A stretch of DNA of 45,744 bases from a virus (Duplodnaviria; Heunggongvirae; Uroviricota; Caudoviricetes): the IMG/VR virus record IMGVR_UViG_2671180921_000030, positions 1-45,744 of that record. The stretch is one strand, 5' to 3'. The notes beneath the pieces were generated by a model. That model ran no database searches and was not told the origin of the DNA. It worked only from the letters and a program-made list of their open reading frames with translations. Numbering within the stretch: the first letter of the stretch is position 1; each line of letters begins with the position of its first letter. This document shows, one piece after another, positions 8,126-15,060 of this stretch. The translations under genes and the position numbers were made by a program.

Positions 8126-8515
8126 TTAGGAGGATTTTTTCTGTTGCCTGCTTCTTAGATATTTTTCCACATACTCATCAAGCTCTTGAAGACGGATTTC
8201 GAACAGATCAATCATGCGTGCTTGTTCTGATCCCGGGAGCTGATTAAACAGCTCTAGCATTTTTTTCTGGTTATCATTTAACCATGAGTACGTGTTTTCC
8301 TGTTCACCGAACATTAATTCTGCGGGGGAAATGCCTAGTACTTGGCCGAGGATGATCGCATCCTCAGCCCCCACACTCCTGGTGCCAGCTTCGTAGTTAG
8401 CAATACGAGAAGAACCTGACCAACCACATAGTTTTGCCAGGTTTCCCATACTTAATCCTCGATTTAGGCGAGTGGCTTTTAGGCGCTCGCCTATTTGTTC
8501 TGCAATCGTTTTCAT
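8126..8515 (-). CDS. CI-like HTH (XRE family) repressor
   Basis: Trimmed to MKTIAEQIGERLKATRLNRGLSMGNLAKLCGWSGSSRIANYE (helix-turn-helix); divergent from Cro-like gene. Confidence 0.7.
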   Translation of the reverse strand: MKTIAEQIGERLKATRLNRGLSMGNLAKLCGWSGSSRIANYEAGTRSVGAEDAIILGQVLGISPAELMFGEQENTYSWLNDNQKKMLELFNQLPGSEQARMIDLFEIRLQELDEYVEKYLRSRQQKKSS

Positions 8516-8609
8516 AGTTCCGATTTTATCACGATGTGTGAAATTGGCGGTACTCACGTATCTGTAGTTGATCTCACTCACGAAATGTGAATAATAGAAA
8601 CAGGAGGTA
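8516..8609. promoter_or_regulatory. Immunity-region divergent promoter/operator interval
   Basis: 94-bp gap between divergent repressor and cro-like genes with repeated ACTCACG and TGTGAA motifs. Confidence 0.4.
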
Positions 8610-8855
8610 ATGATGAACAAAATTTCAACATATCGAAAACAGCTTGGGCTGTCTCAAAGACAACTTGCTGTTCAGTTAGGGTGGATACAAAGCCGACTGG
8701 CAAATTACGAAGCAAATTTTCGTACCCCTGGGCTAGAGGAGTGCAGAAAAATTGTTTCTACCCTTAATCGGCTTGGTGCTCATTGTGGACTTGACGATGT
8801 ATTCCCCCCTGACGGTAAGCATAGCGAAAACAGCATAGGAGCGGTTGATTCATGA
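8610..8855 (+). CDS. Cro/YdaS-like HTH protein
   Basis: HTH signature QLGLSQRQLAVQLGWIQSRLANYE; AGGAGG upstream; true start may be the second ATG at 8613. Confidence 0.6.
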   Translation: MMNKISTYRKQLGLSQRQLAVQLGWIQSRLANYEANFRTPGLEECRKIVSTLNRLGAHCGLDDVFPPDGKHSENSIGAVDS

Positions 8856-9278
8856 AAATCAAGCATGAGCACATCGAATCAGTGTTGTTAGCCCTGGCAG
8901 CCGAAAAAGGGCAGGCGTGGGTCGCTAACGCAATTACTGAAGAATATCTGCGCCAGGGGGGGGGGCGGCGAATTGCCCCTTGTACCAGGCAAGGACTGGA
9001 ACAATCAGCAGAATATCTATCACCGTTGGTTGAAAGGTGAAACGAAAGCGCAAAGGGAAAAAATTCAGAAACTGATCCCTGCGGTTCTGGCAATTCTTCC
9101 GCGCGAGCTGCGTCACCGACTCTGCATCTTCGATACCCTGGAACGCCGTGCATTACTGGCGGCGCAGGAAGCGTTGAGTACGGCAATTGATGCGCATGAT
9201 GATGCAGTCCAGGCCGTTTACCGGAAAGCACATTTCAGCGGTGGTGGGTCGCCCGGCGATTCTGTCGTAGTGCATTGA
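8852..9278 (+). pseudogene. YdaT-like gene split by a frameshift at a G10 tract
   Basis: ORFs 8852..9040 and 8973..9278 in different frames overlap at the G run 8956..8965; removing one G gives one continuous reading frame. Confidence 0.5.
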
Positions 9279-9322
9279 TTGAAATTAATCGTGCCGGATT
9301 GTTTTGTTCGGTATCAGTTAAA

Positions 9323-9766
9323 TGTAACGCTGCGAGCGTTACAAGGTGAAAACAAATGGCTTCAAACTGGATAAAGCTCGAGGTTATTACGCCGGATAAG
9401 CCGGAAATATTCAGGCTTGCTGAGATTCTGAATATTGATCCAGATGCCGCATTAGGGAAGGTTATTCGCTTCTGGGCATGGGCGGATCAACAAATGATAG
9501 ACGGTAATGCAGATTGTAACGCTCGCGGCGTTACAAAAAGTGCAATAGATCGCATCACTTTTATGGCTGGTTTTGCTGATGCGTTAATTCAGGTTGGATG
9601 GCTGGTCGAAAATGACGGTGGGCTTTCTCTACCTAACTTTGAACGTCATAACGGGAAAAGCTCTAAAAAACGGGCGGTTACAAACGAGCGAGTTACAAAA
9701 ATACGCGAACTGAAACGAAAAGGTAACGCTGGCAGCGTTACACAAATGGATCAAAAAGCGTTACCA
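9323..9766. repeat. Iteron-like TGTAACGC-N5-GCGTTACA palindromes, candidate replication origin
   Basis: Palindromes at 9323..9343, 9515..9535 and 9724..9742 plus extra GTTACA half-sites at about 9675, 9689 and 9758. Confidence 0.4.
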
Positions 9767-10150
9767 GAGGAAGAGGAAGAGGAAGAGGAAGATATAAATA
9801 CTGATCTCCCCCTAAATCCCCCTCGCCAAAAACGAGCGTCTAAAAAATTTGAGCCGGAGGCTATTGAGCTGCCCGATTGGTTGCCGGAAACACTCTGGCA
9901 TGAGTGGGTCCGGTTCAGGCAGGCATTGCGAAAACCGATTCGAACGGAGCAGGGCGCTAACGGGGCGATACGGGAGCTGGAAAAATTCCGCCAGCAGGGT
10001 TTTACACCTGAGCAGGTGATTCGACACAGTATCGCCAATGAATACCAGGGCCTGTTCGCGCCGAAAGGTGTTCGGCCTGAGACGTTGCTCCGACAGGTTA
10101 ACACCGTCTCGTTGCCGGACAGTGCGATCCCGCCAGGCTTCAGGGGGTAA
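9356..10150 (+). CDS. Phage replication initiation protein
   Basis: 264-aa ORF just upstream of DnaC-like loader; internal acidic E8 stretch encoded by (GAGGAA)4; iterons inside its 5' half. Confidence 0.55.
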   Translation: MASNWIKLEVITPDKPEIFRLAEILNIDPDAALGKVIRFWAWADQQMIDGNADCNARGVTKSAIDRITFMAGFADALIQVGWLVENDGGLSLPNFERHNGKSSKKRAVTNERVTKIRELKRKGNAGSVTQMDQKALPEEEEEEEEDINTDLPLNPPRQKRASKKFEPEAIELPDWLPETLWHEWVRFRQALRKPIRTEQGANGAIRELEKFRQQGFTPEQVIRHSIANEYQGLFAPKGVRPETLLRQVNTVSLPDSAIPPGFRG

Positions 10151-10156
10151 CAGGCC

Positions 10157-10903
10157 ATGAAAAATATTGCGACAGGAGGCGTTCTGGAGCGTATCCGCAG
10201 ACTGACCCCACCACATGTAACCGCCCCATTCAGAACGGTTGCGGAGTGGCGCGAGTGGCAACTTGCTGAAGGCCAGAAACGTTGCGAGGAGATCAACCGC
10301 CTGAATCGTCAGTTGCGGGTGGAAAAAATCCTGAATCGCTCTGGCATCCAGCCGTTGCACCGCAAATGCTCGTTTGCGAATTACCAGGTGCAGAACGAAG
10401 GGCAGCGATACGCGTTAAGCCAGGCGAAATCCATCGCCGATGAACTGATGACCGGGTATACAAATTTTGCGTTCAGCGGAAAACCTGGTACCGGGAAGAA
10501 TCACTTAGCGGCAGCTATCGGGAATCGCCTGCTGAAAGACGGTCAGACAGTGATTGTGGTTACCGTGGCTGATGTTATGAGCGCCCTGCACGCCAGCTAT
10601 GACGACGGGCAGTCAGGCGAAAAATTTTTGCGGGAGCTGTGCGAAGTGGATCTGCTGGTTCTTGATGAAATTGGCATTCAGCGCGAGACGAAAAACGAGC
10701 AGGTGGTGCTGCACCAGATTGTTGATCGCCGGACAGCGTCGATGCGCAGCGTGGGGATGCTGACAAACCTGAACTATGAGGCCATGAAAACATTGCTCGG
10801 CGAGCGGATTATGGATCGCATGACCATGAACGGCGGGCGATGGGTGAATTTTAACTGGGAGAGCTGGCGTCCGAATGTTGGTCAGCCAGGAATTGCGAAG
10901 TAA
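10157..10903 (+). CDS. DnaC-like replicative helicase loader (IstB-like AAA+ ATPase)
   Basis: Walker [16 protein letters not shown] and Walker B LLVLDEIG. Confidence 0.8.
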
Positions 10904-12158: not shown

Positions 12159-12178
12159 AAAGCCTCCTAGGAGGCTTT
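12159..12178. terminator. Perfect 20-bp palindrome, bidirectional terminator
   Basis: AAAGCCTCCTAGGAGGCTTT with A-rich and T-rich flanks between convergent genes; the methyltransferase stop codon is in its centre. Confidence 0.5.
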
Positions 12179-13207
12179 GATTATATTAAGCAAATGTTTT
12201 CCAATCGTTTCAGACATCTTCGGAGGGACCGCATTTCCTATTTGACGAGCCCGAGATTGCAAAGAACCAATAAATTTATAATCCAAAGGAAATGTTTGTA
12301 GACACGCTGCTTCACGAACCGATATTGCTCGATTTTGTGTTGGATGTCCAAAACGTCCATTTGAATAGCTAATACAACGAGTTGTTAGTCCGCTGGCTGG
12401 TTTGTCCCAACTCAAACGTCCATATACGTCTGTATGCCCTTTATGGTTACGATGGCATTCTAAAATCAATTCATCTGGCCAAAATTCTCGACTTCCACCT
12501 TCAGGAGTGCATTTTATTCTACGTAAATTAAGCTCTGATAAGCGTGCAGCTTCATGATCAGGAATACTATTATGCTTTTCTCCTGCTTCTATCTTCGGTA
12601 AATTAGCGATCCAGTCCTTTACTGTTGAATAGGGAGTATTTCCAACCCCATGTGTAGGAGAAGGCAATGCGACATAAAAATCCTTGGATGCAATGAGCAC
12701 TAATCTTTCTCGCGTCTGTGGTACACCGTACCACGCAGCTGGCATTACTTTATAATCTACACTATATCCCTTTGATGAAAGCATTTCTAAAAACATCATG
12801 AATGTTCCTTCATTTTTGTTAAACTTTTGCATTCCTGGCACGTTTTCAACAAAAATAAAATCAGGCATATAATGCTCTACAAAGCGACTGAATTCCTTTA
12901 ATAGATCTAATCGTGGATCATCATTTTTCTTATTTGAGTTTTGCTTAGAGTACGGTTGACAAGGCGCACATCCTGAAAAAAGAATGTAATCATTACGATG
13001 TTTTTTTACTAACTTGTTTATGGCATTGTTGTCGATTAACCTAATGTCCGAGTTAATAAAAGCAGCCTGCGGGAAATTTGCACGAAATGAACTGGCTGCA
13101 TCAACGTCGAAATCGAGGCCAAAAACAATATCCATTCCAGCTTGATGGAAACCTTGGCTGGTTCCACCACAACCGGAAAAGAAGTCAAACACTTTGATTT
13201 TTTTCAT
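12167..13207 (-). CDS. DNA (cytosine-5)-methyltransferase
   Basis: Motif I FDFFSGCGG, motif IV PCQPYS, ENV, QTRERL, GNAVPP; trimmed to MKKIKVF preceded by AGAGGGA; AT-rich by inspection. Confidence 0.85.
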   Translation of the reverse strand: MKKIKVFDFFSGCGGTSQGFHQAGMDIVFGLDFDVDAASSFRANFPQAAFINSDIRLIDNNAINKLVKKHRNDYILFSGCAPCQPYSKQNSNKKNDDPRLDLLKEFSRFVEHYMPDFIFVENVPGMQKFNKNEGTFMMFLEMLSSKGYSVDYKVMPAAWYGVPQTRERLVLIASKDFYVALPSPTHGVGNTPYSTVKDWIANLPKIEAGEKHNSIPDHEAARLSELNLRRIKCTPEGGSREFWPDELILECHRNHKGHTDVYGRLSWDKPASGLTTRCISYSNGRFGHPTQNRAISVREAACLQTFPLDYKFIGSLQSRARQIGNAVPPKMSETIGKHLLNIIKAS

Positions 13208-13230
13208 TTTTCCCTCTGCATCCAGAATCA

Positions 13231-15060
13231 CTACCTAATGATACCACGGTCAAGAGCCTGAGTAATTATTTTTCTTATTTTTATAAATTCAGGCAATTCA
13301 TTTTTAAGTCTTGCGGTCATCATTTGTTGGAGGCAAAAAATTTCCTCTGCATTTACTTCTTCTTTATCATACAGGTGTTGCGCTAATAATCTTATTTGAT
13401 TCTTATACAGTTCTGGATCATTAGAACTCCAGGTCTGTGAATCAATTATTTCTTTTTCACTTGGCGTAATTGCCTTTTCAATGAGTAATTGTTCGGGAGT
13501 ATCAAATGGTAAATACTGCACTTTATTGAATGCATACTCAAGCACTTGCCTTTTGAGTCTATTAGATTCTTGTTCATTTTTTTTGCCATTACTACCACTG
13601 GCATTGATAATTAACTCGCAACCATAATATTTGCACATTGTATTAACTAAATCAGCATCAGCAATTTCACTAATTCTTACTGGTTTTATTTTTTTGTTGT
13701 TATCACCATCAAGTAAAAACAAAATATCATTGCGTTCTACCACAGCGTAACTGGGAAGATGCTTGCTTAAAATGGTCTCCGAACCACCTGGTATATAACT
13801 TACACTAAATGATAAGCTTAATCTTTCATCATTTTTAATCGCTTTATCTATAATTGCTTTAGCTAATTTATCTTCTACAATTATTGTTTTCTTGTTAATA
13901 TCATGCCCTAGCTCTATAAAAGCTTCATCCGGTGCTATATTTTGAACTATTTTAGCTGTTTCACTCTCTTCATCAAAAACAAATAATTTAATGGCATCTT
14001 TGGGAAGAGTGTTCACAATAACAGGAGAATGGGTTGATATTACCACTTGATGTTTTTTCTGCTCAACAATAGAGTACAGAACATCCATCATCCTTTTTTG
14101 TGCACCAGGGTGAAGTGAAACTTCTGGTTCGTCAAGAAGAATTAATGAATTAGGTTTGGCCGAATAAATATTGAGTATTAGTGAAACTATTGCAAATTCA
14201 CCACTTCCAGCAAACGCTTCTGTATAGTTCAACTTATCAGTTGAAAGTAAAGCGGTTCCTCCTCTGGTTCCAAATAACCGATGCTCAAGAAATTTAATGA
14301 CTTTATATTTTTTCCCTAATATAAATGAGACGTGCTCAACTAGTTCTGGCGCCAAGGTTATATTTTTAACAATGGTTTCCGCCCCCCAGAGTCTTAAATT
14401 ACTTAGCTTTTCATCAAAAGCTTTCTTTATATATTTAGATTTGCTTCTGATATAGTCTTGCTTTGTAATTAATACACCACTCTTCTTCTTTCTTAATTTA
14501 AAATCAGAGTGATACATACATCTATCAAATGCACTTATTTCCGATCTGAAATCTAGGAAAACCAATCCCTTCTTGATTTTTTTCCATCTGGTTGCATTAC
14601 TATTAGCACCCAGATCATCCGAAATACTCTCCATGTTATCACCAACAGATGGTCGACTTGTTTCCCAATAATCGATTGTTTTCTTGGTAGCATTGATACG
14701 TGCTTGGAGTATTTCAACTAAACGGCCATCAGCATTTTTATATCCATATATATATCTAGGTTTAAGAGAACTGCCATCAGCAAGTTTTAGGTCAGGAAAC
14801 TCATCTGTTTCAGTTGTGAACCAATAACGAGTTATATTTTTACCATGTGGGCAACCAAATAGCGCTTTGATAACAGAACTTTTATTAGTTCCATTTTTTC
14901 CTACTAAAGCCGTTATAGGGAACTGAAAATCGATCCTTGCATTCTGCTCTATATTTTTAAAGTATGGAAAACGGATATGTTGTATGAATGGTTCAAATTC
15001 ACCGTTTTTTAACGCGCACTGGAGTGTTCGAATTTTGCTCTTGTATGCGGAAGTGCTCAT
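13231..15060 (-). CDS. OLD-family ABC-ATPase with C-terminal TOPRIM nuclease domain
   Basis: Walker A LVGKNGTNKSS, Walker B/D-loop LLDEPEVSLHP, H-loop ISTHSP, TOPRIM-like IIVEDK and LFLLDGDN; 23-nt gap to downstream methyltransferase. Confidence 0.75.
   Translation of the reverse strand: MSTSAYKSKIRTLQCALKNGEFEPFIQHIRFPYFKNIEQNARIDFQFPITALVGKNGTNKSSVIKALFGCPHGKNITRYWFTTETDEFPDLKLADGSSLKPRYIYGYKNADGRLVEILQARINATKKTIDYWETSRPSVGDNMESISDDLGANSNATRWKKIKKGLVFLDFRSEISAFDRCMYHSDFKLRKKKSGVLITKQDYIRSKSKYIKKAFDEKLSNLRLWGAETIVKNITLAPELVEHVSFILGKKYKVIKFLEHRLFGTRGGTALLSTDKLNYTEAFAGSGEFAIVSLILNIYSAKPNSLILLDEPEVSLHPGAQKRMMDVLYSIVEQKKHQVVISTHSPVIVNTLPKDAIKLFVFDEESETAKIVQNIAPDEAFIELGHDINKKTIIVEDKLAKAIIDKAIKNDERLSLSFSVSYIPGGSETILSKHLPSYAVVERNDILFLLDGDNNKKIKPVRISEIADADLVNTMCKYYGCELIINASGSNGKKNEQESNRLKRQVLEYAFNKVQYLPFDTPEQLLIEKAITPSEKEIIDSQTWSSNDPELYKNQIRLLAQHLYDKEEVNAEEIFCLQQMMTARLKNELPEFIKIRKIITQALDRGIIR

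Follow-up and report, generated by a model that had tools for sequence, protein, structure and literature searches.

A candidate replication origin in and just upstream of the initiator gene of a Rac-like prophage of Escherichia coli

The DNA analysed here, referred to as the window, is the entire stretch of 45,744 nucleotides (nt) of the virus record IMGVR_UViG_2671180921_000030 (Caudoviricetes), and represents a Rac-like lambdoid prophage of Escherichia coli (45.7 kb). A replication initiator of 264 amino acids is encoded on its plus strand at 9356-10150. The region that starts at 9323, shortly before this gene, and extends into the part of the gene encoding a linker is probably the replication origin of the prophage, embedded, in the style of lambda, partly in the gene that encodes its own initiator and partly in the DNA that directly precedes this gene. 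Comparative analysis shows that the motifs of this region are not random, that the sites of a given gene change in concert, that a helix of the initiator covaries with the class of its palindromes, and that the layout of the core is conserved. The palindromes are regarded as functional DNA sites because selection acts on them at the DNA level, because they change in concert and covary with the helix, and because a polypurine/AT-rich element adjoins them. The preliminary description of this DNA, made from its letters alone, had proposed a candidate origin inside the initiator gene, and this proposal is supported by the same observations, with origin activity as the function to which they point.

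Three palindromes are present in the region. Palindrome 1 (TGTAACGC-TGCGA-GCGTTACA, 9323-9343) is perfect and intergenic, with 13 bp between its end and the ATG, and directly adjoins the ribosome-binding site AGGTGA. Palindrome 2 (TGTAACGC-TCGCG-GCGTTACA, 9515-9535) is likewise perfect and lies within the coding sequence of the N-terminal domain (N-domain), at codons 54-60 (C-N-A-R-G-V-T). Palindrome 3 (GGTAACGC-TGGCA-GCGTTACA, 9722-9742) lies in the linker-coding sequence and is the core site of the entire family; its outermost base is mismatched, and its 7-bp arms are perfect at 9723-9741. The form common to the three sites, which are inverted repeats of 19-21 bp, is GTAACGC-N5-GCGTTAC, and the distances from start to start are 192 and 207 bp. 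All three had been noticed in the preliminary description, which located the first two correctly and placed the third at 9724, two bases beyond its start. When this form is searched with up to three mismatches, exactly three matches are found in the window, where 0.16 are expected, and none of 100 shuffles that preserve dinucleotides gave three. The comparison with shuffled sequence, by which the motifs had been proposed to be checked, therefore confirms their enrichment.

A lone right half-site, GCGTTACC, is located on the plus strand at 9758-9765, where it abuts the polypurine tract described below and is read as A-L-P, in a frame different from that of the palindromes. Matches to GCGTTACA with at most one mismatch occur 49 times in the window, and eight of them are inside 9323-9765, which is about 1% of its length. 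Additional GTTACA half-sites had been listed at about 9675, 9689 and 9758. The first two are indeed GTTACA motifs, located at 9677-9682 and 9692-9697, and the third is GCGTTACC, which does not end in ACA. The two GTTACA motifs are part of a tandem repeat of 14-15 nt (9668-9699) that overlaps the codons of a basic helix. They were dropped as core sites, because their DNA is not conserved beyond the clade of the window, and it is doubtful that they are functional. A degenerate left half-site, GTAATGC (9504-9510), lies 4 bp upstream of palindrome 2; it is weak and represents a lineage-specific duplication (peptide GNA-D-CNA), and 15 of 18 relatives use GGT as the Gly50 codon at this position. Palindromes 1 and 2 are also related to each other beyond their arms. 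Read in opposite orientations, the segments 9323-9344 and 9514-9535 match over all 22 nt, including the spacer, except for a single mismatch (95% complementary). Spacers drift freely in relatives, yet palindromes 1 and 2 share theirs in the window, and this may reflect a recent gene conversion or a coincidence.

To relate these sites to those of other genomes, two sets of relatives were used. The close set consists of 82 relatives from viral contigs, and the diverged set of 27 genomic loci with 44-98% amino-acid identity from Enterobacterales, Planctomycetota, Ignavibacteriae, Saccharibacteria and others. Every member of the close set has all three sites; most substitutions affect the 5-bp spacer, and the arms show only an occasional change of a single base. 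Members of the diverged set carry GTAACGC-N5-GCGTTAC as well, about +148 to +160 and about +337 to +412 from the start codon. Their spacers bear no relation to one another, while the arms do not change from Enterobacterales to Planctomycetota, Ignavibacteriae and Saccharibacteria. The spacer columns of a position-weight matrix carry about 0 bits, and these columns alone are informative, since the sites were chosen by pattern and the arms are biased accordingly. The palindrome at about +337 to +412 is found in nearly every member of the family. An equivalent of palindrome 1 is located at -32 to -44 in most diverged relatives from Enterobacterales, and at -55/-58 in loci L311 and L312.

Synonymous codon choice was compared in an alignment of 21 diverged genes, with 48 other conserved codons as the reference. 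The normalised synonymous entropy is 0-0.57 for the arm codons, as compared with a median of 0.91, close to saturation, for the reference codons (Mann-Whitney p = 8e-6). Among the arm codons of palindrome 2, N55 is AAC in 20/20, S58 is AGC in 14/16 and V59 is GTT in 18/19 cases, and among those of palindrome 3, N124 is AAC in 17/17 and V128 is GTT in 16/16. The residue at the edge of the arm varies among Cys, Ser and Gly while the bases GT persist. At the lone half-site, Leu136 is encoded by the rare codon TTA in all 16 cases and Pro137 by CCA in 17 of 18. This codon usage shows that selection acts on the DNA sequence of the arms and not just on the encoded protein. The conservation of palindrome 1 does not come from the protein in any case, because this palindrome is non-coding. 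One may suppose that the repeats have no function as DNA and merely represent a repeated peptide (N-A-x-S-V-T) together with a poly-Glu linker, since palindromes 2 and 3 are read in the same frame and encode similar peptides. However, the freezing of synonymous codons is confined to the arms, and the half-site and the purine tract are kept across reading frames. Thus, the frozen arm codons, the persistent GT at the arm edge, the half-site in another frame and the non-coding palindrome 1 exclude the repeated peptide as the sole explanation, and its chance of being correct is negligible.

More distant members of the family, found in phage records and belonging to other subfamilies, have different palindromes at the same positions of the gene. 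These are GTCCGC-N7-GCGGAC in Salmonella phage epsilon15 and Pseudomonas phage phiPSA1, GTAGACG-N6-CGTCTAC in Ralstonia phage Raharianne, GTGGCGC-N5-GCGCCAC and GTTGCGC-N5-GCGCAAC in metagenomic viruses, GTCACA-N7-TGTGAC in a Vibrio phage and CTAACG...CGTTAG in two Planctomycetota loci (L105 and L108). The separate sites of any single gene all belong to one class. This result fits a single reader acting in trans, unlike independent hairpins. The candidate for the recognition element of this reader is the helix KKRAVTNERVTKIR, encoded on the plus strand at 9665-9706 (codons 104-117), which follows the invariant sequence F-x-R-H-N-G-x-x-(A/S)-K-x-R. The helix reads R-A-x-T-x-x-R-V with class GTAACGC, R-R-x-x-(D/E)-A-x-R-K with class GTCCGC, R-A-x-K-x-x-R-Q with class GTAGACG and R-A-L-(K/R/G)-K-x-R-M with class GTGGCGC or GTTGCGC. 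The residue after the invariant Arg, which is V113 in the window, predicts the palindrome class with no exception in 124 distinct proteins, a count that covers phylogenetically related sequences. Val is paired with GTAAC/CTAAC (55 proteins), Lys with GTCCGC/GTCACA/GTCACG (51), Gln with GTAGAC (7) and Met with GTGGCG/GTTGCG (5). An N-terminal background with the sequence NLWDDPRV is found with either GTAACGC or GTCCGC, and the helix changes along with the class. Because the codons of the helix are not conserved as DNA outside the clade of the window, this signal is one of the protein.

Two variations of the sites were noticed in the course of this comparison. In L105 and L108 the outermost base of both arms is changed symmetrically, and both proteins are two residues shorter at the N-terminus (M-S/T-W-I-K as compared with M-A-x-x-W-I-K), which hints at a contact between the N-terminal tail and the outer base of the half-site. 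Distant relatives (L316-L321) have dense overlapping arrays of GTTACG/CGTAAC in place of spaced palindromes, such as GTTACGCGTAACGACCGTAACGTTACG at about +390, and these may represent a different site architecture within the same family.

The palindromes may instead act as hairpins in messenger RNA or single-stranded DNA, either as signals for processing or stability, or as sites that the DnaT-like domain of the initiator reads in single-strand initiation or primosome assembly. Each of them can form a stem of 8-10 bp with an energy of -10 to -16 kcal/mol and a z-score of -2.4 to -3.6, and the arms remain complementary through the changes between subfamilies. The minus strand of palindrome 3 is moreover terminator-like: read from 9741 to 9723 and followed by CTTTTCGTTT, it scores as a weak candidate, which could stop antisense transcription entering the origin. 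However, the sequence of the arms itself, beyond their pairing, is invariant across phyla within a class. Separate hairpins need not share their sequence within a gene, nor switch together with a helix of the protein. The rare mismatches in the arms are A-C and A-G as often as G-U, and the lone half-site cannot form a hairpin at all. A function as hairpins is thus quite unlikely. An intrinsic terminator or structured RNA was rejected separately, because no terminator-like site is found on the plus strand at the palindromes and an Rfam search of the region gave no meaningful match.

The DNA that follows palindrome 3 is conserved in its arrangement. The order of elements after the linker palindrome is the same in every palindrome class: 5-6 A-rich bases, a right half-site of that class, a polypurine tract, a TATAAA-like stretch and a C-run. 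The half-sites of this core end in CC and are, depending on the class, GCGTTACC, GCGGACC, GCGTCTACC or GCGCCACC. In the window, the polypurine tract is 27 nt long (9766-9792, plus strand) and holds (GAGGAA)4 at 9767-9790, exactly as the preliminary description had read it; this repeat encodes E8, residues E138-E145 of the product. The tract is followed by the short AT-rich stretch TATAAATACTGATC (9793-9806), which includes GATC, and by the C-rich element TCCCCCTAAATCCCCCTC (9807-9824). The TATAAA-like stretch is found after the purine tract in most subfamilies and often carries GATC, and the C-run follows it in many relatives. The polypurine tract of relatives is 13-35 nt long and usually (GAGAA)n. 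Where it is read as Arg-Glu-Glu-Lys-Arg-Arg-Glu, Arg is encoded by AGA in all 298 codons, as compared with 16% AGA elsewhere in the same genes, and the same DNA of the tract, ACCAGAG..., is translated in two different frames across lineages. The tract is therefore selected as DNA, because its Arg is always AGA and because it is used in two reading frames. When the half-site together with the tract was searched for in viral contigs outside the gene family, only genes of the family, some of them frameshifted, and four chance matches without a palindrome were found.

The GAGGAA repeat is evidently the in-frame version, specific to the lineage of the window, of this polypurine tract of the family. 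Distinct close relatives have between 1 and 7 perfect copies of it, most often 3, and every change is in frame, so that the suspected variation in copy number is borne out. A unit of 6 nt slips in frame, while a unit of 5 nt would cause a frameshift, and this explains why the copy number varies in the clade of the window. The repeat had been described as one that encodes an acidic linker and is prone to slippage; both properties hold, but it is more than a microsatellite of the linker, being part of a conserved tract. In the window, 24 nt separate the palindrome from the tract, as compared with 12-13 nt in compact relatives. Across relatives these distances cluster at 12-13, 23-24 and 35-36 nt, which are roughly whole helical turns as well as whole codons, and the window has the 24-nt form with an additional acaaatggatc.

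The purine tract is also a boundary of recombination between exchangeable initiator modules. The 3' half of the initiator gene is 86% identical at the DNA level to ydaU of the K-12 Rac prophage (L003), and this similarity begins abruptly at about 9789, at the end of the GAGGAA repeat; the N-terminal part of the K-12 protein is an unrelated DUF1376 domain. In many relatives from E. coli, with products of 376-378 amino acids, an in-frame insert of about 115 amino acids is found right after the AT stretch, with its junction just past 9806. It is carried by P0012, P0025 and three of the 82 close loci, and one cluster of such proteins has 429 members. Its pattern D...E-x-D...K (RIDIVV...IELDRNSPRQK) recalls PD-(D/E)xK nucleases, and Pfam gives no match; such an insert may represent a mobile, nuclease-like domain within the linker. 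An explanation in which the sites are read by another protein, of the host or of a neighbouring phage gene, or mark the boundary between gene modules, can draw on the exchange of N- and C-terminal halves at the purine tract and on the joining of the insert-bearing variant there. However, the neighbouring genes differ among relatives and the hosts span phyla, while the sole constant partner of the sites is the N-domain, whose helix covaries with them. This explanation is quite unlikely.

The position of palindrome 1 raises the question of whether the sites are only operators by which the initiator represses its own transcription or translation, with the true origin elsewhere in the prophage. 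Palindrome 1 ends close to the start codon and abuts the ribosome-binding site, the spacing of about 200 bp resembles that of looping operators, and covariation tells which protein binds the sites, not what the binding does. However, this explanation does not account for the tract, the TATAAA-like stretch and the C-run that are conserved beside a half-site of the same class in all subfamilies. The universal site is the one in the linker-coding sequence and not the one near the start, and a scan for promoters found no promoter-like site near palindrome 1. Autoregulation as the only function is thus rather unlikely, and a dual role as origin and autoregulatory site is possible.

The sites in the coding sequence coincide with flexible parts of the predicted initiator structure. 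In an AlphaFold2 model of the 264-residue product, the N-domain (residues 7-96) is modelled confidently with four helices and a beta-hairpin, and is predicted to be a winged helix. Residues 97-161 form a disordered linker, and residues 162-240 a helical, DnaT-like C-terminal domain (C-domain). Palindrome 2 maps to a loop of low confidence (residues 54-57), and palindrome 3, the half-site and the repeat map to the disordered linker. The constraints on the DNA thus fall in parts of the protein that tolerate them.

Several observations weigh against an origin of this kind. The sites are dispersed, unlike the contiguous iterons of lambda, and the sole close neighbours among them are palindrome 3 and the lone half-site. 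The AT-rich stretch is merely about 14 bp long, and the local GC content never falls below 0.38, the value reached at 9740-9799. Palindrome 1 is absent in several lineages. The codons of the helix are 20-60 bp from the linker palindrome, so that physical linkage in recombination could explain part of the covariation, and the independent switches of class are few, about 5-6. The structural model is of moderate quality, with a mean pLDDT (predicted local distance difference test score) of 66, and the candidate recognition helix is predicted to be helical at residues 107-119, but with a pLDDT below 50.

If the region is nevertheless a replication origin, as we consider likely, it may work as follows. 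Dimers of the initiator would bind the three palindromes of 19-21 bp, and an additional single subunit would bind the lone half-site GCGTTACC, with recognition by the winged-helix N-domain and the basic helix 104-117. The duplex would open at the (GAGGAA)4 polypurine tract and TATAAAT, beside the bound half-site, and the DnaT-like C-domain would recruit the DnaC-like protein YdaV and the host DnaB. The early rightward operon would be transcribed across the site. Binding, the stoichiometry of dimers, the point of unwinding, the recruitment of the loader and the firing of the origin are all steps that we infer from conservation and arrangement. A broader proposal, which we put forward only tentatively, is that the N-domain, the palindromes and (GAGAA)n constitute a self-contained and portable origin-initiator cassette. 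One or two residues of the basic helix (T109 and V113 in the window) would set bases 3-5 of the half-site as a simple, reprogrammable code, a natural series of mutually orthogonal pairs would exist across many bacterial phyla, and the polypurine repeat would capture a strand in the manner of DnaA-trios.

The initiator belongs to a large phage family for which Pfam has no model: neither the whole product of 264 amino acids nor either of its halves gives a Pfam match up to E 10. It matches phrog_2509 over residues 1-264 (E 6e-91), and the name of this family, replication initiation protein, is an annotation. Only the C-terminal part matches phrog_678 (O-like), and phrog_4880 (replisome organizer) is matched with E 0.0016. 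Three assignments to known proteins were rejected. The protein is not a homologue of lambda O, because Pfam remains empty even at E 10. It is not a member of YdaU/DUF1376, because Pfam finds DUF1376 in K-12 YdaU alone and the hhalign probability is 0.1%. It is not DnaT proper, because it scores 16 bits against an NCBIfam cut-off of 201 and does not match the Pfam DnaT model. The C-terminal tail resembles DnaT weakly (NCBIfam E 0.006; PDB 2ru8 E 0.16), and the homologue of epsilon15 passes the Pfam DnaT model. The N-domain is found in 6,886 cluster representatives at E <=1e-3, of which 4,356 remain at E <=1e-10, and in 60 phage records. The hosts of the family range from E. coli to Planctomycetota, and its phages include epsilon15 and Xanthomonas CP2. 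In plasmid records, it is found in only two, both of which resemble phage circles and provide no independent evidence of a replicon. A plasmid-type iteron origin, with direct repeats of 17-22 bp bound by Rep monomers, was also rejected, because the sites of the window are inverted repeats.

The initiator gene occupies the slot of gene O in the early region of the prophage. A racR-like repressor gene (8126-8620, minus strand) is followed by a cro-like helix-turn-helix gene (8610-8855), the cII-like ydaT, the initiator gene (N-domain at residues 7-96, linker at 97-161 and C-domain at 162-240) and the gene for a DnaC-like helicase loader, ydaV (10157-10903, plus strand; Pfam IstB_IS21 with E 2e-19, NCBIfam PRK12377 with 507 bits, phrog_50). 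YdaV is presumed to be the partner of the initiator. In relatives the flanking genes vary: a DnaC-like gene, a DnaB-like gene or neither is found downstream, and a methylase, Rha or cII-like gene upstream. The chromosome of E. coli strain 8178 is 100% identical to 9280-10160, and this segment is matched in 1,422 of 5,426 complete E. coli genomes at no less than 80% identity over at least part of its length. Two features of the neighbourhood may be mentioned. In the window, a run of 10 G at 8955-8964 breaks ydaT into two open reading frames (8852-9040 and 8973-9278), while the otherwise identical locus of strain 8178 (L001) has 6 G and an intact ydaT of 423 bp; a sequencing error in the homopolymer, a genuine slippage that inactivates the gene, or phase variation could each account for the difference. 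An open reading frame similar to C-5 cytosine DNA methyltransferases (12167-13231, minus strand) is located about 2 kb downstream in the window. A C-5 methylase gene directly precedes the initiator gene, whose start it overlaps, in phage epsilon15 and Vibrio phage 1.211.A (L111 and L118).

No account of this origin was found in the searchable literature, which leaves out most subscription journals, so that an earlier description is possible; most likely the element is of a familiar kind and its present version is undescribed. The region provides a candidate origin that can be tested, together with a candidate recognition helix, for a very large family of initiators (about 6,900 representatives) without a Pfam model, a family that covers the Rac-like prophages of about a quarter of complete E. 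coli genomes. The natural switches of specificity form a compact data set on the reading of DNA by protein, and possibly a basis for the design of orthogonal replicons. The region also shows how an origin may be threaded through coding sequence, with sites in a surface loop and a disordered linker and a polypurine element read in different frames.

The candidate origin can be compared with several known systems. Gram-positive phages such as SPP1 (G38P/oriL) and lactococcal TP901-1 (rep) have replisome-organiser origins whose repeats are located inside the initiator gene. The window resembles them in this placement of the repeats, but has no detectable sequence relationship to them, the match to phrog_4880 being marginal. 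In bacterial oriC, reportedly as described by Richardson et al. in 2016, a DnaA box is followed by DnaA-trios. As an analogy only, a duplex site directly abuts a short-period, purine-biased repeat for strand capture in both cases; the proteins are different, and the period is 5 or 6 nt in the family of the window, as compared with 3 nt. The primosomal protein DnaT of E. coli (primosomal protein I) shares with the initiator the resemblance of the C-terminal tail and the pairing of its gene with a DnaC-like gene, as in dnaT-dnaC, but it has neither a sequence-specific N-domain nor an origin of its own, and the protein of the window is below both curated cut-offs for DnaT. The Rac prophage of K-12, with YdaU, YdaV and oriJ, is alike in prophage type and gene order, in the DNA identity of the 3' half of ydaU and in its homologous ydaV, and has been reported to have an active origin, oriJ (PMC3945230). 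In contrast, its YdaU has a DUF1376 N-domain that is unrelated by profile comparison, and it has no GTAACGC palindrome. Lambda is the proven parallel, with an origin made up of iterons and an AT-rich tract midway in gene O (PMC7466680). Lambda has 4-6 contiguous iterons, whereas the window has three dispersed sites and one half-site, with a polypurine repeat and about 14 bp of AT-rich DNA instead of a long AT-rich tract. The initiator of the window is unrelated to O, its loader is DnaC-like and not lambda P, and recognition appears to rely on a basic helix that follows the winged-helix domain. Thus, the parallel with gene O that had been drawn in the preliminary description does not extend to a tight iteron array or to homology of the initiators, but it stands for the presence of origin-like sites within the initiator gene. 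As in the origins of lambda and Shiga-toxin phages, the candidate origin occupies the linker-coding part of that gene, between a putative DNA-binding N-domain and a C-domain that would bind the loader, and inverted repeats that are the probable initiator sites are found beside a tract that may open easily, in the early rightward operon and upstream of a helicase-loader gene (PMC7466680, PMC8508860).

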